From Thermodesulfobacteriota bacterium (GTDB lineage Bacteria > Desulfobacterota_D > UBA1144 > Nemesobacterales > Nemesobacteraceae): a stretch of DNA of 64,000 nucleotides. Under the pieces are notes generated by a model. The model had not been told where the DNA came from. It did not search any database and saw only the letters and a program-made list of their open reading frames with translations. Shown here one piece after another: positions 10,166 through 47,091 of this stretch (positions within the stretch are counted from its first letter, which is position 1; each line of letters starts with the position of its first letter). The stretch spans positions 1,994,381-2,058,380 of the forward strand of contig OZ251569.1 of NCBI GenBank assembly GCA_965243595.1. Reading direction: 5' to 3'. The position numbers were made by a program, and so were the translations under genes.

Positions 10166-10187
10166 CGGAAGCGCGGACTTCGGATAC

Positions 10188-17650: not shown

Positions 17651-17662
17651 GGGCGGGGAACT

Positions 17663-18142
17663 TCAGAAGGAGACGGCCTCGGGAGAAACCTCGGCCACGA
17701 TCTCTATTTCCACCGGGGAGCCCAGCGGAAGTTCGAAGACGCCGACCGCGACCCTCGAGTGCTTTCCGTTTTCAAGGAACGTCCGGGAGAAAAACTCGGA
17801 AGCCCCGTCGACCACCCTGTGCTGCTCGCGGAAACCCGGGGCGCTCGCCACGTAGCCCGTCACCCTGAGAATTCTTCGGAGCCTGTCGAGACCTCCCAGG
17901 ACGTGGTTCATGGCCGAAAGACCGTTGAGGGCCGCGAGTTCCGCGGCCTCGCGTCCCTGCTCCACCGTCAGTTCCGCCCCGACCCTGCCCCTGTAGACAA
18001 GCTCGCCGTCGCGGACCGGCAGCTGGCCGGAAACGAAAACGGGCCTCCCCGAACCCGCCGCGATCGCCGGAACGTAGCCCCCCGCGGGGACCGCGGGCTC
18101 CGGAAGCTCTATTCCCAGCTCCCTGAGTCTCTGCTCTATCAT
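17663..18142 (-). CDS. ridA: RidA/YjgF family reactive-intermediate deaminase
   Basis: MIEQRLRELGIELPEPAVPAGGYVPAIAAGSGRPVFVSGQLP...VEQGREAAELAALNGLSAMNHVLGGL...SRVAVGVFELPLGSPVEIEIVAEV is the YjgF/chorismate-mutase-like fold consensus. The start ATG (18140-18142) abuts the htrA stop. The 366-aa track ORF is an upstream over-extension into htrA. Confidence 0.8.
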   Translation of the reverse strand: MIEQRLRELGIELPEPAVPAGGYVPAIAAGSGRPVFVSGQLPVRDGELVYRGRVGAELTVEQGREAAELAALNGLSAMNHVLGGLDRLRRILRVTGYVASAPGFREQHRVVDGASEFFSRTFLENGKHSRVAVGVFELPLGSPVEIEIVAEVSPEAVSF

Positions 18143-19539: not shown

Positions 19540-19591
19540 CTGAAAGTCACGCTCCTTGAAAGCAACAATTCTAACGCCGCGCCGGGCTCCG

Positions 19592-20788
19592 TCAAATGGG
19601 ATCCTTGAGCATGTCGTCCCAGTACCTGAAGAAAAGCCGCTCGCCGGAAAATATCTTCATGGCGCGGTTCCGCAGCGCGGAGAGAGCCCCGCTTTCGGTG
19701 TACATGAACTTTCCCACGAGCCTCGACTGGTTCTGCACCTTCTCCACCCTGCTCCTCCTCCGCGACTCGTAGCGCTCGAGCGCCGAGGCGAGATGCGCCG
19801 AATCGGTCCTGCAAAGCTCCTCGGCCAGCACGGCCGCGGACTCCATGGCCATGGACGCTCCCGTCCCCGCGCTGGGCAGCACGGCGTGAGCCGAGTCTCC
19901 GACCAGCACCACCCTGCCCCGCGACCAGCGCTTCATGCGAAGGTCGCTGTACTCGTCGTAGTGGATGTCGCGCGGATCGCCCAGGCCGCGGAGAATGTCG
20001 GGCACCACTCCCCCGAACCCGGCGAAAGCGCGGCGGATGTTCTCCGCCCTCGCCTCGACGCGGTCCCGCGACCCCCGGGCGGTCCTCACGCTCGTAAAAA
20101 CCGCGATACGGCCCCGGGTCGGCCAGATTCCGAGAAACCTGCCCCTTCCCCAGTACTCCGCTATGCCGTCGTCGGTCCCGCAGATGTCGGGACTCACCCA
20201 GAACCCCCACCCGGACATGCCGCTGTAGGCGAGAGGCACCTCTCCGAACGCCGCCCCGCGCACGGCCGACCTTATTCCGTCGCAGCCGACCACCAGGTCG
20301 TACTCCTCCCTGGTCCCGTCGCCGAAAACCGCCGTGACGCCGTCTTCGTCCTGGGCGATCGAGACCACCCGCGTGGCCATCCTGATCGAACCGGGGCTCA
20401 CGGCCTCCTTCAGTATGTTTATGAGGTCCGGCCTGTAGACGCTTATCACGGGACCGTATTTTTCGACCACGGGGTCCACCGAGCAGCGGTTTATTATCTC
20501 TCCGGCCGAATTCGAGATGTTGTAGCTCGTAAAGCAGCGGCCCGCGTCCCGAAGCTTTTCGTAAAGACCGAGACCCTTGAGTATCCTCGAGCCGGACGGC
20601 CAGACGACTATGACGTAGCCCACGCTTCCGAACCCCGGGGCCCTCTCCGCCAGCACGGGCGAAAAGCCCCTGCGCTCGAGAAGCCCGCAGAGAGTGAGCC
20701 CGGCGACCCCGCCGCCCGCTATGAGAATCTTCATGTCCGGACCGTAGCGCACGCGACGCGGCGCGGACGGGCCGCTTCCGTTTTTCAT
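19592..20788 (-). CDS. FAD-dependent monooxygenase (UbiH/salicylate-hydroxylase-like)
   Basis: MKILIAGGGVAGLTLCGLLERRG (GxGxxG FAD fold), DLVVGCDGIRSAVR and GRVVLVGDSAHAVLPSAGTGASMAMESA (FAD-binding GD motif). The start is either ATG 20788 (preceded by GAGGGGAAAAGGGA) or the MKIL ATG at 20734. Confidence 0.8.
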   Translation of the reverse strand: MKNGSGPSAPRRVRYGPDMKILIAGGGVAGLTLCGLLERRGFSPVLAERAPGFGSVGYVIVVWPSGSRILKGLGLYEKLRDAGRCFTSYNISNSAGEIINRCSVDPVVEKYGPVISVYRPDLINILKEAVSPGSIRMATRVVSIAQDEDGVTAVFGDGTREEYDLVVGCDGIRSAVRGAAFGEVPLAYSGMSGWGFWVSPDICGTDDGIAEYWGRGRFLGIWPTRGRIAVFTSVRTARGSRDRVEARAENIRRAFAGFGGVVPDILRGLGDPRDIHYDEYSDLRMKRWSRGRVVLVGDSAHAVLPSAGTGASMAMESAAVLAEELCRTDSAHLASALERYESRRRSRVEKVQNQSRLVGKFMYTESGALSALRNRAMKIFSGERLFFRYWDDMLKDPI

Positions 20789-32623: not shown

Positions 32624-33379
32624 CTATCCTCGCGCGCGCGTCCCGCGGGCGGGAAAGCGGGTCCGGAGGAGCATCGCGCCGAAAACCGCGACCAGGACGA
32701 CGCACGCGAGCTGCGCCTGGGAAATCCCCTCGATGAAGCTCGGGGTGGTTTCCCGGAGAAGCTCGGCGGCGAACCTCTGCGTCCCGAGCGCCACGAAGCC
32801 CACCGAGGCGAGCCATCCCGCCGGGGCGGGCCTTTTCCTGATCCTCCAGAGAACGGCGAAGAGCACGGCCATGGAAAGCGTGTCGTAGAGCTGCGAGGGG
32901 TGAACGTTCACGGCCCTCTCGGAGAAGGTGAGGGCCCACGGGAGGTCGCACTCAACGCCGTAGTCGCAGCCGTTCAGGAAGCACCCTATCCTCCCCACCC
33001 CGTAGCCGGCGACCAGCGCCGGGCAGACCACGTCGAGGAGCTGCCCGTAGGCGATTTTCCTCGCCTTGGAGAGCAGGGCCAGGCCCAGGAATATTCCGAA
33101 AATCCCGCCCGCCGAGGAGTATCCCGAAACGAAGTAGCGGGGGGTGTCGGCCAGAAACTCCGCGAGCGTGGCGTTCTGGTAGAGAAAAAGAAGCTTGGCC
33201 CCGATCACGCCTCCGGCGAAGCAGGCGAGCAGAAAAGCGGGTCCGAGCTCGGGGTCCATTTTCCTCCGCCCGATCTCGCTTCGCGCCGCGGCGTAGGCCA
33301 CCAGATAGCCCGCCGCGAAAAACACCGAGTAGGACGTCAGGTAGAAATCCTCTCCGAACCTCAGAAGTACGGGATACAT
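32624..33379 (-). CDS. lgt: prolipoprotein diacylglyceryl transferase
   Basis: Multi-TM protein with the Lgt signature GRIGCFLNGCDYG and conserved Y/G-rich helices. Confidence 0.8.
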   Translation of the reverse strand: MYPVLLRFGEDFYLTSYSVFFAAGYLVAYAAARSEIGRRKMDPELGPAFLLACFAGGVIGAKLLFLYQNATLAEFLADTPRYFVSGYSSAGGIFGIFLGLALLSKARKIAYGQLLDVVCPALVAGYGVGRIGCFLNGCDYGVECDLPWALTFSERAVNVHPSQLYDTLSMAVLFAVLWRIRKRPAPAGWLASVGFVALGTQRFAAELLRETTPSFIEGISQAQLACVVLVAVFGAMLLRTRFPARGTRARG

Positions 33380-33398
33380 GGGCGCGGACCTCCCTGCC

Positions 33399-34286
33399 TC
33401 ACTCCTTGACGAGAGAGTTCACGTCTATGAACGGCACCGCGCCGCCTCCCGAGAACCTGGGAAGCGTGCCGTCCCACTTCTCCGCCACGCGCAGCTGTAT
33501 TATCTGCGGGTTGTTGCGAAGCGCCCGGGCCTCCCTCTCTATGGCGTCGGCCCTGGCCTTGGACGCCACCTCTATCTCGAACGCGCGGGCTCCGGCCGCG
33601 AGCTTTTTCTCCTCGGCGGCGGCTTCCGCCTGCGTCACCCTTCTTATCTTCTCGTTCTTGGCCTGCAGGGCTTCCTGCTCGGCCTTCACCTTGAGCTCGA
33701 TGGCCCTGTTGAACTCCTCGGAGAAGTCGAAGTCGGTTATGGCCACGTTGGCGATCCGAAGCGCGGTGGGAGATATGTCCTTTTCGGCCAGCGTGACGGA
33801 TATGAACTTGTTTATCGCCTCCTGTATCTCGACCTTCACCTCGGCCCTCTTGGTGACGAGCTGCTCGGCGGTGTACTTCGCGGTGATGGCCTTTACCGAC
33901 TCCTGTATCGCGGGCTCTATGAGCGTGAGCGACACGGTGTTTCTCTTTCCTATCTTCTGGAATATGAGCGGGGCGAGATCCCCCGTGATCGAGTACTGGA
34001 GCGTGACCTGGGTCTGCACGGTCTGCAGGTCCTTCGAGGCGGAAACGGCCTTGGCTACGGCGGCGGTGAGACGTATGTCTATCTGCTCGATCTTGTCCAT
34101 GAAGGGCTTTTTGAGATGAAACCCTTCTTGGAGGGCCTTGGGCTGCACGGCCCCGAGCGTCCTCACGACCCCGACGTGCCCGCTCTCCACTATGACGAAA
34201 ACCCCCGTGACGACAAAGAATATGAGAATGAATATCACCGGGTAGAAAATGTTCAGCCTTGGAAGCTGTCTTTTTACTCTCATCAA
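33399..34286 (-). CDS. SPFH/band-7 (prohibitin/HflC-like) membrane protein
   Basis: N-terminal TM (IFYPVIFILIFFVVTGVFVIV), SPFH core ESGHVGVVRTLGAV...QTVQTQVTLQYSI and a long Ala/Glu/Gln coiled-coil tail. Confidence 0.8.
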   Translation of the reverse strand: MMRVKRQLPRLNIFYPVIFILIFFVVTGVFVIVESGHVGVVRTLGAVQPKALQEGFHLKKPFMDKIEQIDIRLTAAVAKAVSASKDLQTVQTQVTLQYSITGDLAPLIFQKIGKRNTVSLTLIEPAIQESVKAITAKYTAEQLVTKRAEVKVEIQEAINKFISVTLAEKDISPTALRIANVAITDFDFSEEFNRAIELKVKAEQEALQAKNEKIRRVTQAEAAAEEKKLAAGARAFEIEVASKARADAIEREARALRNNPQIIQLRVAEKWDGTLPRFSGGGAVPFIDVNSLVKE

Positions 34287-34359
34287 TGTACCTCCGTTAA
34301 GTACTTCCGTTGCGGTGTATTATACTCGGATACCCCGGCAAACATAAGCGCGGCGCGGA

Positions 34360-36069
34360 TCAGGACTCCGCCGCCCTCGCGTCCCGCACGAAAAGCCGGG
34401 TTCTCCTCCTGCCTCTCCATTCCTCGGAGCGCGCGGCGAAAACCATATCCATTTTCGCGGGAAGTTCCACGACCGGGGAGTCGAACCACACGCAGCGAAG
34501 CGAAGCGCCGTCCGCCCCGGCGTCGAAGGAGACGTGGCGCTCCTTCATGACCCTCGCGTTTTCCACCTCGACCGCCCTCGCGAGAAAAAGCGGCTCGGGA
34601 TTTCCCTCTCCGAAAGGAGCGAGCCTCCCGACCTGGGAGACGAGTTCGTCCGTGAGGGAAGAGAGGTCGATTTCGCAGTCCACCTCCAGCGCGGCCTCGG
34701 GTCTCGGGCCGGTCTTGGAAAGCTCCGCGCAGAATCTTTTCCTGAAAGGGTCGACCGAGTCCCCTCCGATCGAGATTCCGGCGGCGAACCTGTGTCCCCC
34801 GAACGCGGACAGCAGTTCCGCGCACTTCGAAAGCGGCGTGAATATGTCCGCTCCCGCGAACGACCTTCCGCTCCCCCTGCCCTCTCCGTTTCCGTCGACC
34901 GATATGAGAAACACGGGTTTTTCGTAGAGCTCGCAGAGAGACGAAGCCACGATTCCCAGAACCCCCCTGTGCCACCCGGGCGAGCAGAGAACCAGCGCGG
35001 GGTCGTCCGCCGGACCCCCGTCGGCCTCGACCATCGAGACGGCCTCTGTGCGTATCCGCTCCTCGATTTCCTTTCTCTTCGAGTTTCGCCGGTCGAGACT
35101 TTCGGCGAGCGAGGCGGCCTCGGCGGGGTCTTCGCAGACCAGAAGCGAGACGGCGTCGGAGGCGGAGCCGAGTCTTCCCGCGGCGTTTATCCTGGGACCG
35201 AGGCGGAAACCGAGGTCGAAGGTCTCCACGGGGGCGCCCACGCCGCTTACCTTCATGAGGGCCGCGAGCCCCGGCCGCTTCGGGGAGGCCATCCTCAGAA
35301 GACCTTCGCGGAGCATCGTCCTGTTCACTCCCGAAAGCGGCACGCAGTCCGAAACCGTTCCGAGCGACACGAGGTCGAGGAAGTCGCCGAGGTTGGGTTC
35401 GCCGCCCCGGAAAAATCCCTCTTCCCTGAGAGTCCTTCTGAGTCCCAGAGCGAGGTTGAAGGCCACTGCGACTCCCGCGACGTTCTTGTCCGGGTAGTTG
35501 CAGCCGGGCCGCTTGGGATTGAGGACGGCCGCGGCTTCGGGAAGTTCGCCGCTGATGCTGTGGTGGTCGGTCACCACGAAATCCATCCCGAGCTCTTTCG
35601 CCTCCCTCACCTCCTCCGCGGCGGTTATGCCGCAGTCGACGGAAACCACAAGCTGCGTCCCGCCTCCGCGGAGCCCGCGGAGGGCGTCCGAATTCACGCC
35701 GTACCCCTCGGAGAACCTGTCGGGGATGTAGTACTCGACGTCGCACCCGAGCGCGGAGAGAAAGCTCCAGAGAAGTGACGTTCCCGCGACGCCGTCCACG
35801 TCGAAGTCCCCGTAGACCGCGATTTTTTCTTTTTCGTAGACGGCTTTTTTGAGCCTCTCCACGGCTTCGTCCATCCCCTTCATGAGAAACGGGGAGGGAA
35901 GGTCGGAGAGCGCCGGGGAGAGAAACGTCTCCGCCTCCTCGACCGTGCGTATTCCCCTGTTTGCCAGCAGCAGGGCCGCGATGGGAAGAATCCCGAGCTT
36001 TTTCGAGATTTTCTCGGCGGGACCCTTGGCCGTCTTCGCCACCTTCCATTTTCTTGCCGGCTTGTTCAC
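34360..36069 (-). CDS. recJ: single-stranded-DNA-specific exonuclease RecJ
   Basis: DHH motifs IAVYGDFDVDGVAGTSLL, TDHH and DCGITA, plus a DHHA1 C-terminal region, in 569 aa. Confidence 0.85.
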   Translation of the reverse strand: MNKPARKWKVAKTAKGPAEKISKKLGILPIAALLLANRGIRTVEEAETFLSPALSDLPSPFLMKGMDEAVERLKKAVYEKEKIAVYGDFDVDGVAGTSLLWSFLSALGCDVEYYIPDRFSEGYGVNSDALRGLRGGGTQLVVSVDCGITAAEEVREAKELGMDFVVTDHHSISGELPEAAAVLNPKRPGCNYPDKNVAGVAVAFNLALGLRRTLREEGFFRGGEPNLGDFLDLVSLGTVSDCVPLSGVNRTMLREGLLRMASPKRPGLAALMKVSGVGAPVETFDLGFRLGPRINAAGRLGSASDAVSLLVCEDPAEAASLAESLDRRNSKRKEIEERIRTEAVSMVEADGGPADDPALVLCSPGWHRGVLGIVASSLCELYEKPVFLISVDGNGEGRGSGRSFAGADIFTPLSKCAELLSAFGGHRFAAGISIGGDSVDPFRKRFCAELSKTGPRPEAALEVDCEIDLSSLTDELVSQVGRLAPFGEGNPEPLFLARAVEVENARVMKERHVSFDAGADGASLRCVWFDSPVVELPAKMDMVFAARSEEWRGRRRTRLFVRDARAAES

Positions 36070-36145
36070 CTGGAAGTCTCCGGAAGTTTCCTGCGCGGGT
36101 CAGAATCCGCCGGCCGCACGGAGCGCAACATCTCCGGCCGCGCCC

Positions 36146-37546
36146 TCATGCTTCCGCACGAAGAGTCTCCGGGGCCACAAGTCCGTTTCCCCTGAAACGC
36201 CGGGAGCGCTCTTTTCCCGATTTTCCTTTCGCGGCTTCGGAAACATTCAGGGTTCCGAAGGGCCGTCTCACCGAAGAAAGGCTTATTCCGTTCTTGATGG
36301 AGTTGAGAACTCCGGCGGCCTCAAGATAGTTCTCCACCCTGACGAACTGCCCCGCGGCCCAGGGAAGCTCGCCCAGGTCGTTTCTCATCAGGTTTCTGTT
36401 TTCCCTCACCGCCACAACCTTGATCCCCTGCTCGAGGGCCGCCAGCGTGGGAAGACCCAGGCAGCCGTCCGGAACGACCAGGCAGGAGACGTCCTTCGCG
36501 GAAATTATGCCGTCGCAATTAAACACTTCGGGATCCGCAACGATCCCGGGACTTCCGTGAAGCCCCTTGAGAACGCAGTGAAAGAAGGTGTTGGAGACGG
36601 CTTCCGCCGACATTCTCGCTTCGACGACTCCGGGGTCCATGTTGGAGATTTCGGGGGATTCGAACATCGGAGAATGGGCGGAAGGAACGTCGAAGCCGTA
36701 GGAAACGGCGTGGGTGAGCATGGCCTCGACCCCTCCCCATGGGTTGACCATCTCTCCCCCGCTGCGGAAGTAGTCAAGATGATAGCTCTCGGGGACCTTT
36801 ATCACGGAGGAGATGGCGACCGCGTCGTAGCTTCCCTCGCGCTCTCTCAGAACGGAGAACAGGTTGTCGACGCCTTCGATGACGCCGACCGCCCTGCTTG
36901 AAGACGAATACTCGGACCTCATGGTTACGGAAGGACTCATCCTCACTATGCCGGAACACTCCATTCCCAGAGTCGCCCGGGCGGCGTTGACGGAATTGAC
37001 GGCGGCGTTCTCAAAGACTTCGTGTTCGTTCTCGTCTATGACGGCCAGAACCCGGTTGGACCTTACGGGCCGCAGTCCCGCCGAGCCCATCATCAGGCGG
37101 CAGATGGCGCTGCCTTCGACGTAAAGACTGTTCTCTGGCATTTCGTTTATGTCCGAGGCGTTGAACACGTTCGGGTGGGTTATGAGATTGTCGCAGCACG
37201 AAGACAGCAGCCTGGCCACGGGGGTGGCGTCTCCGGCGTGGCCGCCTATTTCGCAGCCGATTCCCGTGGGAACCAGGAAAACGACGTTGAACTCCCTGGT
37301 GCTCTCAAACTTGCGCTTCTCGAACCTGAACAGCGCCGCGGGGTCTTCGAGACCGTTTATTCCCGCCCCGCCCAGAACGCCGACTTCGCACCTGTAATCC
37401 GGGCCGGAGCTGTCGGTGACGGCGATTCTCACCGGCAGCAGACCTTCTCCGCCCAGACGGGAGGACACCTGTCTTTCAATGTACGACAGCGGGCTCCCGT
37501 CGCCCCGAATCTTGGGAAAAGACATTTCTTTTTCCGTGAATCTCAT
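36146..37546 (-). CDS. hypothetical protein (466 aa), co-oriented and adjacent (3-nt gap) with the nspC-like decarboxylase
   Basis: Clean ORF with no family recognised (…NVVFLVPTGIGCEIGGHAGDATPVARLLSSCCDNLITHPNVFNASD…). The start may be Met8 (MSFPKI). Confidence 0.5.
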   Translation of the reverse strand: MRFTEKEMSFPKIRGDGSPLSYIERQVSSRLGGEGLLPVRIAVTDSSGPDYRCEVGVLGGAGINGLEDPAALFRFEKRKFESTREFNVVFLVPTGIGCEIGGHAGDATPVARLLSSCCDNLITHPNVFNASDINEMPENSLYVEGSAICRLMMGSAGLRPVRSNRVLAVIDENEHEVFENAAVNSVNAARATLGMECSGIVRMSPSVTMRSEYSSSSRAVGVIEGVDNLFSVLREREGSYDAVAISSVIKVPESYHLDYFRSGGEMVNPWGGVEAMLTHAVSYGFDVPSAHSPMFESPEISNMDPGVVEARMSAEAVSNTFFHCVLKGLHGSPGIVADPEVFNCDGIISAKDVSCLVVPDGCLGLPTLAALEQGIKVVAVRENRNLMRNDLGELPWAAGQFVRVENYLEAAGVLNSIKNGISLSSVRRPFGTLNVSEAAKGKSGKERSRRFRGNGLVAPETLRAEA

Positions 37547-37549
37547 GAT

Positions 37550-38707
37550 TTAACCCCCGTAACGGTTTGCGTATTCTTCAAAGGTGAAGCTTTTCACTTT
37601 TTTCATTTCTCCGCCGTCCTCGACGCAGTAGACGTCGGGAAGATTGATGCCGTTGAACGTGTGCGCCTTGACCAGGGAGTAGCCCCCGACCCTTTCGAAA
37701 AGCACCCTGGAACCCACCCGCAGTTCTTCTCCGAAGCGGTACGCGCCGAAAACATCCCCGGCCAGGCAGCTGCTACCCGCCAGTATGTACTCGTTTTCAC
37801 AAGACGGGTCGTCTCCGAAAACATCGGGCCTGTACTGGTATTCGAAAACTTCGGGGAGATGGTTCACGGTAGTGTCCAGAACGGCTATGTCCTTGCCGTC
37901 CCTTCTGAAAAGGTCGACTACGGAAGAAACCAGGCATCCGCTGTCTCTGACCAGGAAAGCGCCGGGTTCGATCATTATCTCTTCGAAACCGTAATCGTCG
38001 TTGAGTTCGTCCGCGAGCTCGTGGAAAAGAGACAGGTTTTCGGATTCGTCGAAGAAGTAGCCGCCGCCCAGATTGATCCACCTGAACTTCCGGAGTTCGC
38101 CGGAAAGCTCGATCTTCAGTCTGGAGATGGTTTCCGCAAGCTGGGAAAAATCCTTGCTCTCGCAGTTCGTGTGCAGATGTATTCCCTCTATCTTTTCCGA
38201 GAAATCCGGGTCGGAGGAAACTTTGTCCCTGACCTGGTCCGCCGGAACGCCGAGCTTTGAGAACTCGCGGCACGGATTGTACCTGCGGTCCTCGACGAAA
38301 GAAACCCGGGGATTGACTCTTATTCCGTAGCTCTGCTCCCCGAGCCTGGATTCGAAACGGGAAAACTGCTCCAGAGAATTAAACGTCAGGTACTCGACCG
38401 CGCCTGAAATGTCCTCCCATTGCCCGTCCCTGATTCCGGGACTGACGAAGTGAATCTTCTTTCCGCCGCCGCAGGTCTTCTCCGCCAGCCTGGCTTCGAA
38501 AAGAGAGCTTGCGGAAAAACCGTCCAGAGAACCCATCTCCTCGAGAATCCTGCACAGGGGCAACGCCTTTAGCGAATAGAGAACCTTGCAGTTCGACCTG
38601 TCCCTTATCAGGCGAAGGGTCTCCAGTCTTTTTCTTATTTCGCCCAGATTGTAGACGAAGGCGGGCGTTGCGGAAGGCTCGCGATTCAGCGGGAAGGAGC
38701 TTTCCAT
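37550..38707 (-). CDS. nspC: PLP-dependent decarboxylase of the Orn/DAP/Arg decarboxylase fold, carboxynorspermidine-decarboxylase-like
   Basis: 385 aa; PLP-Lys region KVLYSLKALP, GIHLHTNCES (compare HxHT.CE of CANSDC), GGGYFFDE and EPGAFLV. Length and motif order fit NspC better than LysA. The start ATG overlaps the stop of the upstream HNH gene (TGATG). Confidence 0.55.
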   Translation of the reverse strand: MESSFPLNREPSATPAFVYNLGEIRKRLETLRLIRDRSNCKVLYSLKALPLCRILEEMGSLDGFSASSLFEARLAEKTCGGGKKIHFVSPGIRDGQWEDISGAVEYLTFNSLEQFSRFESRLGEQSYGIRVNPRVSFVEDRRYNPCREFSKLGVPADQVRDKVSSDPDFSEKIEGIHLHTNCESKDFSQLAETISRLKIELSGELRKFRWINLGGGYFFDESENLSLFHELADELNDDYGFEEIMIEPGAFLVRDSGCLVSSVVDLFRRDGKDIAVLDTTVNHLPEVFEYQYRPDVFGDDPSCENEYILAGSSCLAGDVFGAYRFGEELRVGSRVLFERVGGYSLVKAHTFNGINLPDVYCVEDGGEMKKVKSFTFEEYANRYGG

Positions 38708-39474
38708 CAGATAAGTCCTTTCTTTCTGAAATAGAATCTGGCGAACCCCGAAAATTCGCTGTGCCGGGAAATGTATTTGCTCAGACGCTTGCTAGCCCTG
38801 CCCTTGTTGTCTTTCAGACCTGCCCAAAGCTCATATTCCTCAAAATTTTCAAGTTTGCTCGCTCTTTCCTGCATCATATATCTATTGTTTATTCCCGTCA
38901 GTTTGCTGACTGTTTTTTGCCCGCGCTCGCATTTTCCAACGGCCTTCACCATCAATTTCTTGGATAGACCGTCTTCTGTACACTCCTCTATATCTTCTTC
39001 AAAAAGATCGTATTCTATAAATTCCTCTGGATTTTCTTCAATAGGGTTGATCAGAATTGGTTTTTCTTTCTCAAGGTCACAATCTTCCGGGTCAAGTCTC
39101 TCTGACCCGGGTTCCAGTGGAAATTTGGCCCCCTTTTTTATGTTGCATGTCTCGCAAGCCAAAAGCAGGTTCTCCCAACTGTAAGCAAGCCACCAGTAAC
39201 CCGGATGGTCTTCGACTTCTTCAACCTTCGTTTTGGGGCGAAAATGCTCTACGTGAGCTTCTCCCATGGGTAATCTCCTCTCGCAGTAACAGCATTTCCC
39301 ATGTTGAGGTTTGTAAAGCAACTCTTTGAACTCCCGCCACAATTTTCCGTTTTTAAAATCATCGGACTTCAATTTTCCACAGCTTGCCAATTCTCTAATT
39401 CTCTGGAGCTCTTTTTTTCTCCTCTCGGCTAAACCGGGATCTTCCGGGATTTCCCTGCACTCAATCTTTATCAT
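38707..39474 (-). CDS. ptuB: HNH endonuclease, Septu PtuB-like (copy 1)
   Basis: 255 aa with a His-Me finger: GKCCYCERRL...AHVEHFRPK...WENLLLACETCNIKKG (CxxC...H-EH...N...CxxC...N). Low GC (about 43%). It sits 3 nt downstream of a P-loop ATPase gene on the same strand. Confidence 0.7.
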   Translation of the reverse strand: MIKIECREIPEDPGLAERRKKELQRIRELASCGKLKSDDFKNGKLWREFKELLYKPQHGKCCYCERRLPMGEAHVEHFRPKTKVEEVEDHPGYWWLAYSWENLLLACETCNIKKGAKFPLEPGSERLDPEDCDLEKEKPILINPIEENPEEFIEYDLFEEDIEECTEDGLSKKLMVKAVGKCERGQKTVSKLTGINNRYMMQERASKLENFEEYELWAGLKDNKGRASKRLSKYISRHSEFSGFARFYFRKKGLI

Positions 39475-39477
39475 AAG

Positions 39478-40764
39478 TTAGGATTCGTCCGTTTGATTCT
39501 TAAGCAGTTCGATTAATTCGGCTCTTTGTATTTTTTCCTGTGCGTTATCCCACATAGGCAGGCCTTTCAGCTCTTCTTCAATTTCCTGGAGAAGTTCCTC
39601 TTCTTCAGGATCTCTTTCGTCCTTTTCCACAAGATATATTTCCGCGTACTCTTCCAGCCTCTTTTCTATGTAGTCGCTCCTTGTATCCGTAAGGCCAAAA
39701 ATCCTTGAGGTTAGTATCTGATCAGACCTGTAGCCTTTAAATTCCTTTCTGATGTCAAATTCCTCGACCTCGCTATGGCCGTTTACATAAGCAACCTTGA
39801 ATAGACGGGATTCGCATTCCACTAGGTCGGTCAGCCCCAAAGCGCATATGGGAGTATGCGTGCTGCATATGAACTGCATTTTCGGAAACTGGTCCGAAAG
39901 AGTTTTTATTATTTTTCTTTGCCACCTCGGGTGAAGATGCTGCTCCAGTTCATCAATGATGAAAATCCCCGAAAGATCCTTCAAGCTGAAATTCTCAAAC
40001 TTATGCACACGATTCCAACCCAGAAAATCCATAACAACAGAGGTCAGCGACTTGTATCCGTCGCTCATTGTGCCGAAGGCACCCTCTCCCCGACTAGTCT
40101 TGAAGTACAGCCCCGTTATTTTCAAAAAAATTTCATCTTCTTCTTCCATCATTAAGATTTTTTTCAAGGCATCCTGAAGGTTTTCCCATTCCTCGCCGGG
40201 GTGGCCTTGAATTCTCCTCGCACACAATTCCGCTTTCTGCAAAGGCCGTTCATATTTAAAAAGCGTGTACAAAGCGTCGACCAAGGTATATTCCTCATGA
40301 GACTCCGTCGTACCCGTCACAGACCTGCCCGCACCGTAAGCCACCGCGAAGATATCCTTTCTTTTCTTGAAATTTTTTATTCTACTCTTACCATTCTTCC
40401 CGTCACATTCACCAACGCAATCACCTTGGAAAACATCCTGATTTGAAATAGATTCTTTGTCGCCCTCCCGTTTTATGCGAGTTCTGATTGTATATTTCTT
40501 GCCGTTGGAATCCCCTAAACAAACCTCAATAGAGCCTTCCTTCTTCTTCCATCTCAAAAATCCATCCAGCTCCGACAGAAGAGAGGCCGCCCAGTCGTCG
40601 TCGCAAAGCCCCATGGCAAGACTTCTGAGAATCGTCGTTTTCCCCTGTCCGTTATCCCCCACAAGAAGAGACCAGTTTCTAGCACCGCCGTCAACAGACT
40701 CGAACGGGATTTCAACTTCCTTGAAACACTTAATGTTTACAAGGCGCAACTTAAGTATTTTCAT
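39478..40764 (-). CDS. ptuA: ABC/RecF-like AAA ATPase (AAA_15/AAA_21-type), Septu PtuA-like (copy 1)
   Basis: Walker A LLVGDNGQGKTTILRSL, Walker B/Q IIDELEQHLHP and H-loop ICSTHTP in a 428-aa protein with a long helical insert. The two-gene ATPase+HNH arrangement matches the Septu (PtuAB) architecture. Confidence 0.7.
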   Translation of the reverse strand: MKILKLRLVNIKCFKEVEIPFESVDGGARNWSLLVGDNGQGKTTILRSLAMGLCDDDWAASLLSELDGFLRWKKKEGSIEVCLGDSNGKKYTIRTRIKREGDKESISNQDVFQGDCVGECDGKNGKSRIKNFKKRKDIFAVAYGAGRSVTGTTESHEEYTLVDALYTLFKYERPLQKAELCARRIQGHPGEEWENLQDALKKILMMEEEDEIFLKITGLYFKTSRGEGAFGTMSDGYKSLTSVVMDFLGWNRVHKFENFSLKDLSGIFIIDELEQHLHPRWQRKIIKTLSDQFPKMQFICSTHTPICALGLTDLVECESRLFKVAYVNGHSEVEEFDIRKEFKGYRSDQILTSRIFGLTDTRSDYIEKRLEEYAEIYLVEKDERDPEEEELLQEIEEELKGLPMWDNAQEKIQRAELIELLKNQTDES

Positions 40765-41250
40765 TATTCGTCAGCCCTCCACCGGCATCACGATCTTTCC
40801 GAAAAACTGAAAAACCAGCAACTCTACTGAAAACCCGCGATGAGAAAAGATAGCAACAACCTCTAGTAACTCCTCGGGAAATTATACAGGAAAAACTCCC
40901 GAGGGCGTAATTCCCCCGCTAGCTTGTCGTCTGGATGTTTCGTCACACAGAAAACAGCATATATGTCGCATCAGGAAGAGAGCTTACCAACAATGATCAC
41001 TTGACTTCCACCTCCAGTCACATGCTTGCTCCACGCAATATTCAAGTCCACGCACTTGCCCTTAATGAAACGAATTTCCGCCTTTCACGTCAGCTTTACA
41101 AGGATGCGGAGTAGAAGTACATTCGCAAGAAACAACGCAACAGAATCTCTACAAGGTCAAAGAATTGAATACGACAATCTCACCCAAATTGTAAACAAAC
41201 GCAGGCAAGACCATAGTTCTCCATCTTAACGAGAAAAAATTTGCCAATTC

Positions 41251-41991
41251 TTAAAAACATCCCATCTTCTTGAAGTAGAATCTCGCGAATCCTGAAAACG
41301 GACTGCAGCTGGAAGTGTATTCATGCAGGCACCTCTCCGCCTCTGCCCTTAATTCATCGCCTTCGCCATTACTCAAGGACAACGCGCACATCCTATAATA
41401 TTTGATTTTCTTTGCCCTCTTGTTCATCACCTGCATGTCGTTTATTCCCGTGAGTTCATCGACCGTTCTTTTGCCTCGCTCGCATTTTCCGACGGCTTTG
41501 CCCATGAACCGCGGATTCTCCGTATCGTAATCTACAAACATCTCAGGGTCTTCTTCCAACGGATTTATCAGAATCGGTTTTTCTTCGTCAAGGGCGGAAT
41601 TTTCCTCGCAAGCTCTTTTCGACCCGGGTTTCAGAGGAAATTTCGATTTCTTGTATTCCTGATTGCATGTCTTGCAGGCTATTAGCAGGTTTTCCCAGCT
41701 ATAGGCAAGCCACCAGTAGCCTGTATGGTCTTCGGCTCCTTCAACTTCGGCCTTGGGTCGAAAATGCTCCACATCGCTTACCCTCTTTTCATCTTGTTTC
41801 CTCTCGCAGTAACAGCACTTGCCGTGTTGGGACCTGTGAAGGAATTTCTTGACCTTACGGTCGGACCATAAGGTCTCAAAGCGGTAAGGCTTCCCCGATT
41901 TTACCGCTTTTCTGATTTTTTGGAGCTCCTTTTCCCTCCTCCCGTCCAGTTTGTTGCCTTTCGGAGGTTTCCCGCGCTCAATCTTTATCAT
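41251..41991 (-). CDS. ptuB: HNH endonuclease, Septu PtuB-like (copy 2, diverged paralogue)
   Basis: 246 aa; GKCCYCERKQ...VEHFRPK...WENLLIACKTCNQEYK, same N- and C-terminal framework (MIKIE..., ...FSGFARFYFKK) as copy 1, but by eye only about 55-60% identical. Confidence 0.7.
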   Translation of the reverse strand: MIKIERGKPPKGNKLDGRREKELQKIRKAVKSGKPYRFETLWSDRKVKKFLHRSQHGKCCYCERKQDEKRVSDVEHFRPKAEVEGAEDHTGYWWLAYSWENLLIACKTCNQEYKKSKFPLKPGSKRACEENSALDEEKPILINPLEEDPEMFVDYDTENPRFMGKAVGKCERGKRTVDELTGINDMQVMNKRAKKIKYYRMCALSLSNGEGDELRAEAERCLHEYTSSCSPFSGFARFYFKKMGCF

Positions 41992-43262
41992 TGATAAGAC
42001 TTCTTCTCCTGCCTCTCAAACAACTCCATCAGCCTGTCCGTCCGTCTTTTGTCTTCTTCGTCATCCCACATAGGCAAGTATTTCAACTCCTCTTCAATTT
42101 CCATGAGACGTCGCTTTTCTTTGGAGTTTCTTTTGTCCTCTTCCTTAAGATATATTTTTCTGTATTCCTTCAGCTTGTCTTGAGCAGAAACGCTTCTCGT
42201 GCTTTCAAGATCAAAGATGTCCGAGGTCAATATCTGGTCGGTTCTGTAACACTTAAATTCCTCTCTCAGGTCAAATTCCTCAACCTCGCTATGATTGTTC
42301 ACATGAGCAACCTTGAAGAGACGGGATTCGCATTCCAGATCGCTGAGGCCCAAGGCGCAGATGGGAGTATGCGTACTGCATATGAACTGCACCTTCGGGA
42401 ACTGGTCCGAAAGGATTTTTACTATCTCTCTTTGCCACTTGGGGTGAAGATGCTGCTCAAGCTCGTCAATAAGGAGAATTCCCGAGATATTCCTCGAACT
42501 GAAATCCTCAAGCCTACGCATCAGATTCCAACACAGGAAGTCCACGACGACAGAGGTCAAGGACTTATATCCGTCGCTCATTGTATCGAAAACACCTTCC
42601 CCGCGACGAGTCTTGAAATACAACCCCGTTATTTCCAGAGAAATTTCATCTTCTTCTTCCATCATCAAGATTTTTTTCAGGGCATTCCACAGGTTTTCCC
42701 GTTCTTCCTCAGAATGGAATTCTATTCTTCTCGCGCCCAGTTCCGCATTCTGCAAGGACTGTTCATATCTAAAAAGAGTGTACAAAGCGTCAACCAGTCT
42801 GTACTCCTCGTAAGATTCCGTGCCCGACACGGACCTGCCCGCACCGTAAGCCACCGCAAAAATCCTGTTCCTCCTAAAATCTTTTGCTTCTTTATGCTTA
42901 CCCTTTTTATTGACGCAATCACCTTGAAAAACATCCTGAGAGATGGATTCGTTGTTGCCCTCCAGTTTTATGCGGGTTCGGACTGTATATTTTTTACCGT
43001 CGGAATCCGCCAGACAGACTTCAATAGACCCCTTGCTCGCACCCCATCCCAAAAATTCTCCGTGCAATTCCGACCGAAGAGCCGCCGCCCAGTCGTCGTC
43101 GCAAAGCCCCATGGCCAAGCTCCTGAGAATCGTCGTTTTCCCCTGTCCGTTATCCCCGACAAAGAGAGACCAGTTTCTGGCACTCCCGTCGACAGACTCA
43201 AATGGAATTTCAATGTCCTTGAAACACTTAATGTTCTCGAGTCTCAGTTTCAGTATCTTCAT
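41988..43262 (-). CDS. ptuA: ABC/RecF-like AAA ATPase, Septu PtuA-like (copy 2)
   Basis: 424 aa. The N-terminal about 70 aa are nearly identical to copy 1 (MKILKLRLENIKCFKDIEIPFESVDGSARNWSLFVGDNGQGKTTILRSLAMGLCDDDWAA). Walker B LIDELEQHLHP and H-loop CSTHTP are present, and the stop overlaps the HNH start (ATGA). Confidence 0.7.
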   Translation of the reverse strand: MKILKLRLENIKCFKDIEIPFESVDGSARNWSLFVGDNGQGKTTILRSLAMGLCDDDWAAALRSELHGEFLGWGASKGSIEVCLADSDGKKYTVRTRIKLEGNNESISQDVFQGDCVNKKGKHKEAKDFRRNRIFAVAYGAGRSVSGTESYEEYRLVDALYTLFRYEQSLQNAELGARRIEFHSEEERENLWNALKKILMMEEEDEISLEITGLYFKTRRGEGVFDTMSDGYKSLTSVVVDFLCWNLMRRLEDFSSRNISGILLIDELEQHLHPKWQREIVKILSDQFPKVQFICSTHTPICALGLSDLECESRLFKVAHVNNHSEVEEFDLREEFKCYRTDQILTSDIFDLESTRSVSAQDKLKEYRKIYLKEEDKRNSKEKRRLMEIEEELKYLPMWDDEEDKRRTDRLMELFERQEKKSYQ

Positions 43263-43582
43263 TTCTCAATCCCCCGCGGTGCCACAACTCACCGCGAACC
43301 GAAAAAATTCCGCATTAATTTTAATCTGGCTACAGAAGTAAAATCGTAAAAATCCCACCCGAGCTAAAGTATACAGAAGCGAAAGAACCGGGCAAGACGC
43401 CGCGGCGGAGACTGCGGATTGAATCGGAAATTTCGGGCACGGTAGCCGGAAATCCATATCGCTGTGGCAATATCGCGCATCAATCGCTTCTCACCGACCG
43501 CCTGTTTGTAGCACGTTGGTTGTCCGGTTTTCGTTCTACCCCCGGCGACCCCGAGGGGCTGCAAACGGAACAAACCGCCGCT

Positions 43583-44318: not shown

Positions 44319-45155
44319 TTGAAAAGACGGCGGGAAATCATTTCGCGAAGCGTTGTAACGGTTTTTTTCTTCCTCGCGGCCGTGGCGACGGTTCCGGCGT
44401 CCTCGGGCGACGCGCTCGCCCAGAGCGGCCGTTTTTACGTCGGTGCCTCGGCCGATGTCGACTACCTCAGGGTCAAGTACGGAAAAACCGTCGCGAACGC
44501 CGACGTGCCCGCCCTTCCCGAAAGAGGCGAGACGTACCGCGACGGCGACTCCGCGGACAAGGCGGCGTTCGGCGGGGGTCTGCTCGCGGGCTACAGGCTC
44601 GGTTTCGGCGAAGGAGGCGGCTTTTACGTGAGCGCGGAGGTCGACGGGCAGGTCCACGCCCGCTCCGCCAGCGGAGCTTTCGCGGGAAAAGGAGAGTCGC
44701 AGGGACGCAACCAGCTCGGGGAGAGCTGGCCCGACGCGTGGAATCTCAAGAGAAGATACAGCTTCGGGGCGACCGTCAAGCTGGGCGGAGCCGCGGAGTT
44801 TCTGGGTTCCGGTTCCAGCGTCTACGTTCTAGGCGGCGCTCGGCGGCTCAAAACCAGGCTCAGTGTGAACTACTTCGGATGTCTCAATCCTCCGGACACG
44901 AGAGTTCCGTGCCGGACCGATCAGTTCGAGGCGGGCAGCTACTCCCGCGACCGCTCCTTCTGGGGATGGACCGCGGGAGCCGGAATGGAGAAGATGCTCG
45001 CCGACAGGGTCGGAATACGCGGCGAAATTCGCCACACCAGGTACGAGAAGCTGAAACGGACTCCCTTCAGCCTCGTTGACGGAAACCTAAACGTCCGCAC
45101 TTCGCTCGAAGCCAACGAAACCGACTTTTCGCTGAGCGCGGTCGTCTATTTCTAG
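44319..45155 (+). CDS. outer-membrane beta-barrel protein (OMP_b-brl/OmpW-like), copy 1
   Basis: Signal peptide VVTVFFFLAAVATVPASSGDALAQ; alternating amphipathic strands (FYVGASADVDYLRV, GFYVSAEVDG, YSFGATVKLG, VYVLGGARRL, WGWTAGAGME, GIRGEIRHTRYE); terminal beta-signal SAVVYF. Confidence 0.7.
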   Translation: MKRRREIISRSVVTVFFFLAAVATVPASSGDALAQSGRFYVGASADVDYLRVKYGKTVANADVPALPERGETYRDGDSADKAAFGGGLLAGYRLGFGEGGGFYVSAEVDGQVHARSASGAFAGKGESQGRNQLGESWPDAWNLKRRYSFGATVKLGGAAEFLGSGSSVYVLGGARRLKTRLSVNYFGCLNPPDTRVPCRTDQFEAGSYSRDRSFWGWTAGAGMEKMLADRVGIRGEIRHTRYEKLKRTPFSLVDGNLNVRTSLEANETDFSLSAVVYF

Positions 45156-45360: not shown

Positions 45361-46188
45361 ATGAACGAACCGCAGAAACTCATACGCCGAAATCTGAAAA
45401 CGGTTCTTGTATTTTTTCTAGTCGCGGCCGCGGGGCTCGGGTTTGCGACAAGCGACGCATTCGCTCAGGGCGGCGGTTTCTACGTCGGCTTCACGTCCGA
45501 CATCGACTACATCAGAGTCAAGCACAGAAAGTCCACCATAAACAACCCGAACACCGGCGCCCTGCACGAGGGCAAGACCTTCCACGACAGCGATTCGGCA
45601 AGCAGGGTCGCGTTCGGCGGTGGCCTGCTCGCGGGCTACAGGCTGAACCTCGGCGAAACCGGTGCCTTCTACGTGAGCGCGGAGCTCGACGGACAGCTCG
45701 ACGCCCGCTCCGTGAGCGGAACTCTTCCCGGACAGGGAGATACGCCCACCGATCACAGGCAGAGCGGCGCAAGCTGGCCGGACGATTGGAACCTCGAGAG
45801 AAAATACAGCTACGGAGCTACTATCAAGCTGGGCGGCACCGCGGAATTTCTGGGTTCCGGTTCCAGCGTCTACGTTCTAGGCGGCGCGCGCCGGGTCAGA
45901 ACCAGACTCAAGGTGGATTATCTCGGATGCCCCATGTTCGACAAACCGTGCACCAGCAGCGATCAATACAGAGCGGGAAGCTATTCGCAAAACGATTCCC
46001 TGTGGGGATGGACCGCGGGAGCCGGAGTGGAGAAGATGATCGCGGACAGGGTGGGAATACGCGGAGAAATACGCCACACCAGATACGAAAAAGTGAAGCG
46101 GCTCGATGTTCTCAGAACTCTCAGGGTCCCGGCCTCAAACGAGCACAACGAGACAGGCCTTTCGCTGGGTGCAGTGGTATACTTCTGA
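45361..46188 (+). CDS. outer-membrane beta-barrel protein, copy 2 (tandem paralogue)
   Basis: About 65% identical to copy 1 over the full length (…GGGFYVGFTSDIDYIRV…GSGSSVYVLGGARRVRTRL…WGWTAGAGVEKMIADRVGIRGEIRHTRYEK…GAVVYF). Confidence 0.7.
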   Translation: MNEPQKLIRRNLKTVLVFFLVAAAGLGFATSDAFAQGGGFYVGFTSDIDYIRVKHRKSTINNPNTGALHEGKTFHDSDSASRVAFGGGLLAGYRLNLGETGAFYVSAELDGQLDARSVSGTLPGQGDTPTDHRQSGASWPDDWNLERKYSYGATIKLGGTAEFLGSGSSVYVLGGARRVRTRLKVDYLGCPMFDKPCTSSDQYRAGSYSQNDSLWGWTAGAGVEKMIADRVGIRGEIRHTRYEKVKRLDVLRTLRVPASNEHNETGLSLGAVVYF

Positions 46189-46325: not shown

Positions 46326-46610
46326 TCAGAAGCTGTCCGGCCATCTGCGGGACATGTGCATGACCGCGAGGATCAGCATGCGGTTTCTCCTAACCGTGTA
46401 GGGCAGGATAAAAGGCAGAGCAGAAACCACAAGCTCGCGCGTGTTGGAAACGCGACCTGGCCTTCCGATCGACGGAAAGTCGGCCAAATCACCTGCCGCC
46501 TTCAAAAGAGTACTTCCAACTCTGGCAGCCACTACGGGATTTCGTTCGGCGATATAAAAGCGCACGTGTTCAAGATGCGCCAGAGCACGCCTCGTCCACA
46601 GAACTTTCAT
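46326..46610 (-). CDS. parE: type II toxin, ParE/RelE superfamily
   Basis: MKVLWTRRALAHLEHVRFYIAERNPVVAARVGSTLLKAAGDLADFPSIGRPGRV..RELVV...PYIL.Y.V......ILAVMH is the ParE consensus; it overlaps the upstream antitoxin gene by 4 nt. Confidence 0.8.
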   Translation of the reverse strand: MKVLWTRRALAHLEHVRFYIAERNPVVAARVGSTLLKAAGDLADFPSIGRPGRVSNTRELVVSALPFILPYTVRRNRMLILAVMHMSRRWPDSF

Positions 46611-46870
46611 TCGGGGATTTTGCCTTCGTCACTCGAACCCCACGATTTGAGCCACTCGCCAACATCGTCATGGTCAACCAGCCGTCCGGCTTTGACATCC
46701 TCAAGACCCTTATTGATTTCCTCAATTTGCCAAGCGTGCAGCTCAAGATATTCCCTCACGGCCTCTTTGATGTGCCACGATTTCGGCCTGTCGGTCGCTT
46801 TTGCAAGCTCCCCCAGCCGTCTCTCCATTTCCCTGTCCGTTCGGAACGAGACCATTGCTGAATCTGACAT
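46607..46870 (-). CDS. parD: ParD-type (CC2985-family RHH) antitoxin
   Basis: MSDSAMVSFRTDREMERRLGELAKATDRPKSWHIKEAVREYLELHAWQIEEINKGLEDVKAGRLVDHDDV matches the ParD/CC2985 antitoxin pattern (SFRTD...ATDRPKSW...REYL...W....I..G..D...GR). The start is taken at the internal MSDSAM rather than track ORF Met1. Confidence 0.75.
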   Translation of the reverse strand: MSDSAMVSFRTDREMERRLGELAKATDRPKSWHIKEAVREYLELHAWQIEEINKGLEDVKAGRLVDHDDVGEWLKSWGSSDEGKIPE

Positions 46871-47091
46871 TGAGACCTCGCTTTTTGTATTGCGCAGTAT
46901 GGCAATAGCATACAATATCGAATTTTACAAAACAAGATAAGAAACTAAGGACGAAAAACAGCGATTACGGTCGCCAATCAGCACCGCAAAAAACAGTCTA
47001 CATACAAAGATTCCAAGGACACGAACAGGTACATTGGTCCGAGGATTCCAAGCGGTTTGCGCTGTTATAGCTCACTGAAGTTCCAACAAGT

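Follow-up and report, generated by a model that had tools for sequence, protein, structure and literature searches.

The window, that is, the whole stretch of 64,000 nucleotides (nt) of a Thermodesulfobacteriota bacterium analysed here (contig OZ251569.1, positions 1,994,381 to 2,058,380 of the forward strand), contains four co-oriented minus-strand genes that form two PtuA plus PtuB pairs in tandem in its listing of open reading frames (ORFs). Judged from their sequences, the four genes are two intact type-I Septu modules, each with a predicted PtuA ATPase scaffold and a predicted PtuB HNH nuclease. The best overall explanation, to which we give a probability of about 0.7, is that these are duplicated type-I Septu pairs derived from a four-gene operon, in which ptuA and ptuB are followed by genes for an NspC-like decarboxylase and a DUF3326 protein, and that they would act by the mechanism proposed below. 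Septu is among the most widespread defence systems, and the control of its nuclease is debated, with ATP level, a phage tail fibre and, in retrons, multicopy single-stranded DNA (msDNA) having been proposed. The elements of the locus are as follows.

43368..43395, minus strand: promoter-like element P1 (TTGCCC, 16 nt, TATACT; promoter scan), with a leader of ~105 nt to ptuA-1
41988..43262, minus strand: ptuA-1, PtuA, ABC/SMC-like ATPase, 424 amino acids (aa)
41251..41991, minus strand: ptuB-1, PtuB, HNH (His-Me finger) nuclease, 246 aa; its start overlaps the ptuA-1 stop (ATGA)
41149..41250, minus strand: decayed 5' stub of an nspC-like gene directly after the ptuB-1 stop, the scar left by tandem duplication
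40918-40891, minus strand: terminator-like hairpin plus T-run (terminator scan), overlapping promoter-like element P2 (combined feature 40881..40918)
40910-40905 (TTACGC), 18 nt, 40886-40881 (TATAAT), minus strand: promoter-like element P2, with a leader of ~115 nt to ptuA-2
39478..40764, minus strand: ptuA-2, paralogous PtuA ATPase, 428 aa
38707..39474, minus strand: ptuB-2, paralogous PtuB HNH nuclease, 255 aa; a 3-nt gap follows ptuA-2
37550..38707, minus strand: NspC-like decarboxylase of the alanine-racemase fold, dependent on pyridoxal phosphate (PLP), 385 aa; third gene of the conserved module
36146..37546, minus strand: DUF3326 protein, 466 aa; fourth gene of the conserved module

All four ptu ORFs lie on the minus strand where the initial annotation had placed them, and the spacer between the pairs, given there as 485 bp, is 486 nt. 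The low-GC region that had been described is also present (43-49% GC in 38.5-43.3 kb), while the flanks, taken to be uniform at about 65%, range from 53 to 66%.

Profile searches assign both pairs to Septu. PtuA-1 matched the PADLOC PtuA1 model PDLC00304 (E 1.6e-62, residues 3-414) and PtuA-2 the PtuA1 model PDLC00292 (E 2.5e-60, full length), and PtuB-1 and PtuB-2 matched PtuB1 models (PDLC00339, E 6.8e-54, residues 1-242, and E 3.3e-42, full length, respectively). In Pfam, PtuA-1 and PtuA-2 matched AAA_15 (4.9e-18 and 7.1e-19), AAA_21 (6.7e-15 and 3.8e-14) and also AAA_23. The Pfam HNH score was 23.5 bits for PtuB-2 and 20.5 bits for PtuB-1 (cut-off 21.4); for TIGR02646 (cut-off 52.15), PtuB-1 was above with 54.5 bits and PtuB-2 just below with 50.5 bits. 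The gene order is that of Septu type I, ptuA then ptuB on the same strand, joined by the ATGA overlap in pair 1 or separated by the 3-nt gap in pair 2. Both ATPases carry Walker A GDNGQGKTT, the signature MSDGYK, Walker B (L/F)(L/I)IDELE followed by QHLHP, and the H-loop CSTHTP; both HNH proteins carry CCYC...VEHFRPK...W(E)NLL(I/L)AC(K/E)TCN. These motifs are intact in PtuB-1 (CCYC / DVEHFRPK / WENLLIACKTCN) and in PtuB-2 (CCYC / HVEHFRPK / WENLLLACETCN). The best match of PtuA-1 in the PDB was the Septu PtuA 8ee4 (E 5e-17, core motifs only), with retron PtuAs next, and its N-terminus was weakly similar to the OLD-family ATPase 6p74 (E 6e-8). A sequence search of the PDB with PtuB-1 gave no match at E 1e-3.

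The initial annotation had called both pairs Septu-like, and the full-length PADLOC matches, the Pfam families AAA_15, AAA_21 and HNH, TIGR02646 for PtuB-1 and the 8ee4 match bear this out. Its Walker A, Walker B and H-loop motifs are as described in both ATPases; the HVEHFRPK it gave for each HNH protein is exact for PtuB-2, and PtuB-1 reads DVEHFRPK. The alternatives it had named were an ATPase of the OLD/TOPRIM type with a different partner, the lack of a His-Me finger, or a pseudogene. No such partner was found, the His-Me finger is present, and there is no pseudogene in the window. On their sequences the four proteins are ordinary Septu family members, in a clade remote from the characterised ones.

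The NCBIfam equivalogs of the retron-associated proteins scored far below cut-off (NF041760, 114-115 bits vs 500; NF041761, 50-55 bits vs 150). An Rfam scan of 36-46 kb gave nothing at the gathering score, and its sole match under E 1 was RMST_1 (E 0.14), a spurious match to a long non-coding RNA. At the syntenic locus L163, which has 93% nt identity to the window, no RVT family was present among the genes with a Pfam annotation within ±8 kb. The pairs are assigned to type I rather than to retron type I-A because neither the Rfam scan nor the L163 annotation revealed a retron partner. A retron or other non-coding RNA in the spacer or leaders was also considered and rejected, Rfam giving the spurious match only and RNAalifold predicting no pairs on 12 leaders. 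Small ORFs in the spacer were set aside as the nspC stub or noise.

The two genes downstream of ptuB-2 had at first been taken as flank. Their arrangement indicates instead that they form one operon with pair 2, in an order that is conserved across phyla. In the window ptuA-2, ptuB-2 and the decarboxylase and DUF3326 genes follow one another on one strand, the junctions being a 3-nt gap, a 1-nt overlap of the ptuB-2 stop with the decarboxylase start (TGATG) and a 3-nt gap. Related loci were collected in a PtuA-seeded scan (80 loci, the top 80 matches) and in a reciprocal DUF3326-seeded scan (again the top 80 matches), both phylogenetically non-independent; the relatives are metagenome-assembled genomes or metagenome contigs with uncurated bin labels, and genes within the loci were called from ORFs. 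PtuA and PtuB were followed by DUF3326 on the same strand in 40 of the 80 PtuA-seeded loci. The slot between PtuB and DUF3326 was filled by an NspC-like gene in 19 of these loci and by a ~125-aa SpeD/AdoMetDC-like pyruvoyl decarboxylase (PF02675) in 21.

At least 12 phyla hold the four-gene order, and the sequences on either side of it are unrelated. Among the bin labels are Thermodesulfobacteriota/Dadabacteria, Rhodothermales, Bdellovibrionales, Verrucomicrobia, Bacteroidota, Actinomycetes, Marinimicrobia, Zixibacteria, Planctomycetota, Acidobacteriota, Armatimonadota and Proteobacteria. Even among Dadabacteria-like genomes the location of the module varies: it lies after sucC, between a 190-aa gene and recJ, or elsewhere. 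In distant phyla the ptuB-decarboxylase junctions are a stop/start overlap or a gap of at most 33 nt. In the DUF3326-seeded loci the decarboxylase precedes DUF3326 almost always, and PtuAB lies upstream in ~21 of ~44 informative loci, with ~23 loci having enough upstream sequence and no PtuAB.

The genes of the module also share composition and history. Distances between PtuA proteins co-vary with those between DUF3326 proteins, with r = 0.62 overall and r = 0.95 within the NspC type (reached by 0 of 2,000 permutations), and on the DUF3326 tree the linkage state is clustered (observed value 0.84 vs 0.58 in permutations). The PtuA, PtuB and decarboxylase genes average ~7 GC points under their flanks, in 42/42, 41/42 and 38/42 modules, respectively, and the whole four-gene module is below flank GC in most genomes. 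The ptu genes evolve faster, with a mean distance of 0.54-0.61 vs 0.39-0.40 for the enzyme genes. Of the 44 linked modules, 11 have as a neighbour an MfnB-like gene for 4-(hydroxymethyl)-2-furancarboxaldehyde-phosphate (4-HFC-P) synthase (PF04476, 1e-37), and of the 24 unlinked modules none has (Fisher p = 0.006). The gene stands either next to ptuA (L028, L034, L043, L049, L053, L085, L086, L089, L108, L135) or after DUF3326 (L062), which hints at a product more complex than a simple polyamine in some forms of the module. A second, distant PtuA/PtuB pair (~36% identical) lies downstream of DUF3326 in L005 (14578-16587) and, after the MfnB-like gene, in L062 (11567-13758), so that in these two loci the enzyme pair is bracketed by two different Septu systems. 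We conclude that, in operon structure and in inheritance, the enzyme pair is genuinely linked to PtuAB. PADLOC holds no model for the decarboxylase or for DUF3326, the literature searched contained no link of Septu to DUF3326 or to polyamines, and the four-gene order is probably an undescribed variant of the Septu operon.

Several other arrangements were seen around the enzyme pair. In L114 (2710-4951), L129 (4463-6616) and L133 (2016-4184) a co-oriented pair of genes (~205-229 aa and ~507-513 aa) ends a few bases before SpeD-like/DUF3326, in the slot of PtuAB; neither protein matches Pfam or PADLOC, and the two genes may represent an alternative cargo, or a defence pair, that has not been described. 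L109 (1651-7384) has the order PtuA, PtuB, DUF3326, SpeD-like, DUF3326, in which DUF3326 and not the Septu pair is duplicated. Carriage of DUF3326 on plasmids was considered and rejected, as tblastn gave no match in PLSDB.

The product of the enzyme pair is most likely a polyamine-type amine, as the domains and their relatives suggest. The decarboxylase has the Pfam domains Orn_Arg_deC_N and Orn_DAP_Arg_deC, and its best NCBIfam match is TIGR01047 nspC at 273.7 bits, below the equivalog cut-off of 409. It is named NspC-like here because it matches Pfam at the level of the fold and falls short of the nspC equivalog cut-off. The DUF3326 protein matches PF11805 over residues 88-426 (E 2.2e-91, 306.8 bits, cut-off 25). 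The family has at least 6,790 homologues; the AlphaFold2 (AF2) model of the protein, with a predicted local distance difference test (pLDDT) score of 80.8, had no informative solved relative, and a search of the literature for PF11805 by name found nothing. In P. caledonica the pavettamine pathway has a symmetric triamine intermediate that requires both PavA, which contains a decarboxylase domain of the alanine-racemase fold, and the DUF3326 protein PavB. In five loci where the enzyme pair occurs without PtuAB (L088, L091, L094, L102, L159) it is preceded by a glutathionylspermidine-synthase-like gene (PF03738, 8e-131) and a PspA/IM30 gene, neighbours that are consistent with polyamine metabolism.

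Two explanations of the linkage were weighed. One, credible to us at somewhat less than even odds, is that the enzyme pair is a self-sufficient polyamine operon and that Septu genes gather or travel upstream of it, by hitch-hiking or because the site is a defence 'sink', with no interaction between the two. The association is facultative, and the same upstream slot takes other cargo, including the two-gene pair of L114, L129 and L133. The ptu genes evolve at the faster rate given above and undergo replacement of individual alleles beside stable enzyme genes, and in the window the GC content at third codon positions (GC3) is 0.49-0.51 in the ptu genes vs 0.70-0.73 in the enzyme genes, all as expected of mere neighbours. 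This explanation accounts less well for the translationally coupled junction in many phyla, for the different genomic contexts of the module even within one phylum, and for a decarboxylase gene as low in GC as the ptu genes in most genomes; nor is there an integrase, tRNA gene or repeat to define a hotspot.

The other explanation is that PtuA, PtuB, the decarboxylase and DUF3326, with the MfnB-like protein in some loci, are one functional system, which we regard as possible but not probable. The amine would keep the PtuAB nuclease silent, as a metabolic 'antitoxin' comparable to ATP in Septu or msDNA in retron-Septu, or would be a second chemical effector, and the duplicated pairs would share the enzyme arm. 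Here the tight ptuB-decarboxylase junctions in distant phyla carry weight, as does the occurrence of two non-homologous decarboxylases, the PLP-dependent NspC-like and the pyruvoyl SpeD-like (PF02675), in the same slot, which suggests selection for an activity and not for a particular neighbour. The low GC of whole modules within unrelated flanks, the co-varying PtuA and DUF3326 distances, the heritable linkage state on the DUF3326 tree, the MfnB-like gene confined to linked modules, and the presence, in L005 and L062, of independent, distant Septu pairs beside the same enzyme pair point the same way. They have to be set against the finding that each half occurs alone about half the time, and that an enzyme pair lacking PtuAB has GSP_synth/PspA or transporter genes as its neighbours, a setting that resembles ordinary polyamine metabolism. 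In addition, pair 1 has its own promoter-like and terminator-like elements and no enzyme genes, neither enzyme has a PADLOC model, and the literature searched yielded nothing biochemical to tie polyamines to PtuAB. Quite tentatively, a polyamine-type molecule may gate PtuAB, as msDNA does in retron-Septu, or act as a chemical effector; only the sensor/nuclease half would then have been duplicated, giving two specificities with one metabolic arm. If coupling of this kind holds, the locus represents a new Septu subtype and the first function of DUF3326 outside toxin biosynthesis.

The tandem itself appears to have arisen in place. Direct-repeat families with a period of 2,495-2,523 nt and 74-89% nt identity tile both pairs, far beyond chance, and the paralogues are 71% identical for PtuA (E = 0) and 50% identical for PtuB (E = 1e-76). 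The frame-0 translation of the stub after ptuB-1, ...FFSL...LPAFVYNLGEI..., aligns to the N-terminus of the nspC-like protein, MESSFPL...TPAFVYNLGEI. The stub is kept in two related genomes (L001 and L002) and carries the lineage-specific NLGEI, not the NLSEV of the L004 group and single-pair relatives; since it bears the lineage's own NLGEI, it is read as a scar of local duplication and not as an import. P1 and its leader are conserved in L001, L002 and L003 and are homologous to the region upstream of ptuA in the single-pair loci L004, L007 and L016, which lie in other genomic contexts, and the similarity to L001 ends just upstream of P1. By these comparisons P1 and its leader are the ancestral promoter and leader of the module and mark its upstream boundary. 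Between the P1 and P2 leaders the similarity is weak (z about 5-6). The window, L001 and L002 share, without any difference, the spacer block that holds the hairpin/T-run and P2, TTACGCCCTCGGGAGTTTTTCCTGTATA.

The simplest history that these features suggest is an in-situ tandem duplication of ~2.5 kb that took in the promoter, ptuA, ptuB and the first ~100 nt of the next gene and that yields two predicted transcription units. The ancestral unit would have been a four-gene operon of promoter, ptuA, ptuB, NspC-like decarboxylase and DUF3326; after duplication in the ancestor of the lineage the order would have been P1, ptuA1, ptuB1, nspC stub, terminator/P2, ptuA2, ptuB2, nspC-like, DUF3326. 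Import of pair 1 from a low-GC donor was rejected, as the stub has NLGEI and its AT-rich third positions fit pseudogene decay. Separate acquisition of the two pairs is likewise not borne out, the nspC stub and the diverged copy of the promoter and leader pointing to one segmental duplication. The initial annotation had read the low-GC island as a sign of horizontal acquisition. A simple recent import does not agree with the presence of the same tandem in related genomes or with the low GC that is general to these genes (42/42 modules). No flanking direct repeats beyond chance were found at the locus, where the only tRNA gene is 10 kb away, and the syntenic annotated locus L163 contains no integrase. 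The suggestion that tandem Septu pairs had not been described stands, no description having been found in the literature searched. Candidate 'second copies' in L018 and L031 proved to be single ptuA genes split by ~1.1-kb insertions. These insertions (L018:8920-10001 and L031:11017-12168) carry an opposite-strand ORF, interrupt ptuA at residue ~218 and residue ~303, and may be an insertion sequence (IS) element or another insertion that targets ptuA.

The same double pair in the same synteny was found in three related metagenomic genomes, L001 (a 138-kb contig), L002 and L163; in addition, a 22-kb contig held members of the PtuA-1 and PtuA-2 clusters and a 31-kb contig members of the PtuA-1 and PtuB-1 clusters. 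The window, L001 and L002 retain every catalytic motif intact. The ratio of nonsynonymous to synonymous substitution rates (ω, dN/dS) is 0.11-0.28 for every ptu gene among the window and its relatives (against orthologues, 0.11-0.15 for ptuA-1, 0.17-0.28 for ptuB-1 and 0.12-0.20 for ptuA-2) and 0.13-0.24 between the paralogues, and both pairs are under purifying selection. The paralogue dS of 0.55-2.0 indicates that both copies have been kept open for long. Alleles have been replaced gene by gene, which leaves a mosaic. Between the window and L001, dS is 0.34 in the flanking genes, 0.52-0.64 in A1, B1 and A2, and 1.24 in B2, the last indicating allele replacement at B2; between the window and L002 it is 0.36 for B1 and 1.42 for A1. 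The window PtuB-2 is only 54-58% identical to every other PtuB examined. L163, whose 93% nt identity extends over window positions 33-49 kb, has a PtuB-1 pseudogene (L163:6767-7509), in which the catalytic His is replaced by Leu (DVELFQPK) and a 2-nt insertion shifts the frame. A1, A2 and B2 are intact there (ω 0.12-0.27; PtuA-1 0.15), and PtuB-1 has an ω of 0.32 before the frameshift.

It is improbable that pair 1 is a redundant duplicate in decay, surplus, without a distinct function and being lost. The L163 pseudogene, with its altered motif, its insertion and its higher ω, is what such decay would look like, and decayed modules and orphan PtuA genes are common in the relatives L003, L006, L009 and L015. 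Still, the pair-1 genes are intact in the window, L001 and L002 with ω of 0.11-0.28 at a paralogue dS at which an unselected copy would not stay open, and in L163 itself PtuA-1 is still under purifying selection.

The paralogues do not diverge evenly. Their identity is 87-97% in the PtuA N-terminus (first 60 residues) and the ATPase core, against 47-57% over PtuA residues 346-424 and 18-43% over PtuB residues 181-225 (window, L001, L002). In retron Ec78 PtuB's C-terminal region is predicted to dock on the C-terminal helices of the PtuA dimer. The two pairs thus seem to have diverged most at the predicted interface of cognate A and B, which favours two insulated systems over one heteromer. An obligate heteromer, raised in the initial annotation as one ATPase/nuclease system and meaning here a single mixed complex of all four proteins in which neither pair works alone, is very improbable: single pairs are the rule in at least 150 related loci, a promoter-like element of its own precedes each pair and a terminator-like site separates the two, and the sister population L163 has lost PtuB-1. 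In favour of a heteromer, the near-identical N-termini and cores make mixed PtuA oligomers conceivable, and L163 retains PtuA-1 despite the loss of PtuB-1.

In the preferred reading, that of duplicated type-I Septu pairs from a four-gene operon, the two pairs would act independently, with different triggers or targets. Septu needs its Walker A/B and HNH motifs and halts phage growth by cutting tRNA-Tyr in its variable loop (PMC13096335), and hexameric PtuA oligomers hold PtuB in an ATP/ADP-inhibited quiescent state (PMC12819146, PMC13376987). By analogy with these characterised Septu and retron-Septu systems, each PtuA oligomer would hold its PtuB in an ATP-bound quiescent state, and phage infection would release the nuclease, which would cut tRNA and/or DNA and stop the growth of the infected cell.

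Several points weigh against this reading. The clade is distant from characterised Septu, PtuA-1 aligning to 8ee4 over the core motifs only and PtuB-1 having no PDB match. Pair 1 is dispensable in at least one population, since PtuB-1 has been lost in L163. About half of the PtuA clade has no DUF3326 and about half of the DUF3326 loci have no PtuAB, and the counts of linkage are weakened by samples that are top-80 matches and non-independent. The co-variation of distances could partly reflect shared vertical descent. Finally, the window and L001 are exceptions in composition, only the ptu genes being low in GC and the nspC-like and DUF3326 genes matching the host, which weakens the picture of a single mobile cassette for this one lineage.

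Among the relatives, an intact orphan ptuA without ptuB was seen at L003:10001-11534 and, in L006, L009 and L015, around 10001-11290. The L003 gene precedes a 58-aa remnant of the C-terminus of DUF3326, a sign that the remainder of the module has been deleted; the L006 gene sits after sucC, where relatives hold the full module. L001 has AbiEi/AbiEii upstream of the double Septu and a ResIII/DEAD helicase with a DprA-like gene between DUF3326 and recJ (L001:4944-8148 and 17119-20572). In the window, ~3 kb upstream of the Septu pairs, a ParE-toxin (94 aa) and RHH-antitoxin (102 aa) pair with a 4-nt overlap lies at 46326-46915 (minus strand); in L163 the ParE toxin gene beside the RHH antitoxin is apparently absent. 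Two tandem paralogous genes for outer-membrane beta-barrel proteins (PF13505) lie at 44319-45155 and 45361-46188 (plus strand), and both are also present in L163. Long ORFs in other frames cover recJ, DUF3326 and the nspC-like gene on both strands of 33378-38330 (for example 34283-36049, 588 aa, Arg/Gly-rich); they are high-GC artefacts and not genes.

The interest of the locus lies mostly in the conserved four-gene operon rather than in the duplication. That a Septu clade is, in a dozen phyla, translationally coupled to two genes for small-molecule biosynthesis is a testable lead for a new control or effector logic, and the operon gives the large, uncharacterised DUF3326 family its first genomic context. 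Should the linkage prove to be neighbourhood and no more, what is left is an ordinary Septu locus that has been duplicated. The tandem is also a clean natural example of the diversification of a defence module, with a duplication scar, divergence at a predicted interface, gene-by-gene allele replacement and occasional loss of a copy.

Compared with known systems, the pairs are closest to Septu type I, which was reportedly described by Doron in 2018 and of which the E. coli Septu Ec-B88 is said to be an example. They share its two-gene architecture and order, the ABC-type motifs, the CxxC...H...N...CxxC His-Me finger and full-length matches to PADLOC PtuA1/PtuB1, and no reverse transcriptase (RT) was found. 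The MSDGYK signature of the window PtuAs is without the Gln of retron PtuA; stand-alone Septu has been described with a Leu variant at this signature, in contrast to that Gln. The window differs from Septu type I in its two complete, diverged pairs in tandem, in the joining of the downstream pair with a decarboxylase and DUF3326 in one operon, and in the remoteness of its sequences, with PtuA alignable to 8ee4 at the core motifs and PtuB without a PDB match.

Retron type I-A, or 'Septu type II' (RT, non-coding RNA and PtuAB; Ec78/Eco7, Ec83), likewise joins PtuAB to an extra module, which in retrons restrains and senses. The PADLOC models ATPase_I-A and HNH_I-A and the NCBIfam PtuA/PtuB models also match the window proteins, but more weakly, with NF041760/NF041761 far below cut-off; no RT or msr/msd RNA was found, and the extra module of the window is two metabolic enzymes. 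The PavA/PavB cluster for pavettamine, a hydroxylated polyamine, and the NspC pathway resemble the enzyme arm, in that an alanine-racemase-fold decarboxylase is paired with DUF3326 and nspC is the best NCBIfam match. The window lacks the Rieske or JmjC partners of the Pav cluster, many relatives use the SpeD/AdoMetDC-like pyruvoyl enzyme instead, and the window protein is below the equivalog cut-off for NspC (carboxynorspermidine decarboxylase). Gabija, OLD/PARIS and Lamassu share the logic of an ABC/SMC-like ATPase with a nuclease effector; the window pairs differ from them in having no TOPRIM domain and a TIGR02646-type HNH partner, and the Septu models fit them better by tens of orders of magnitude.

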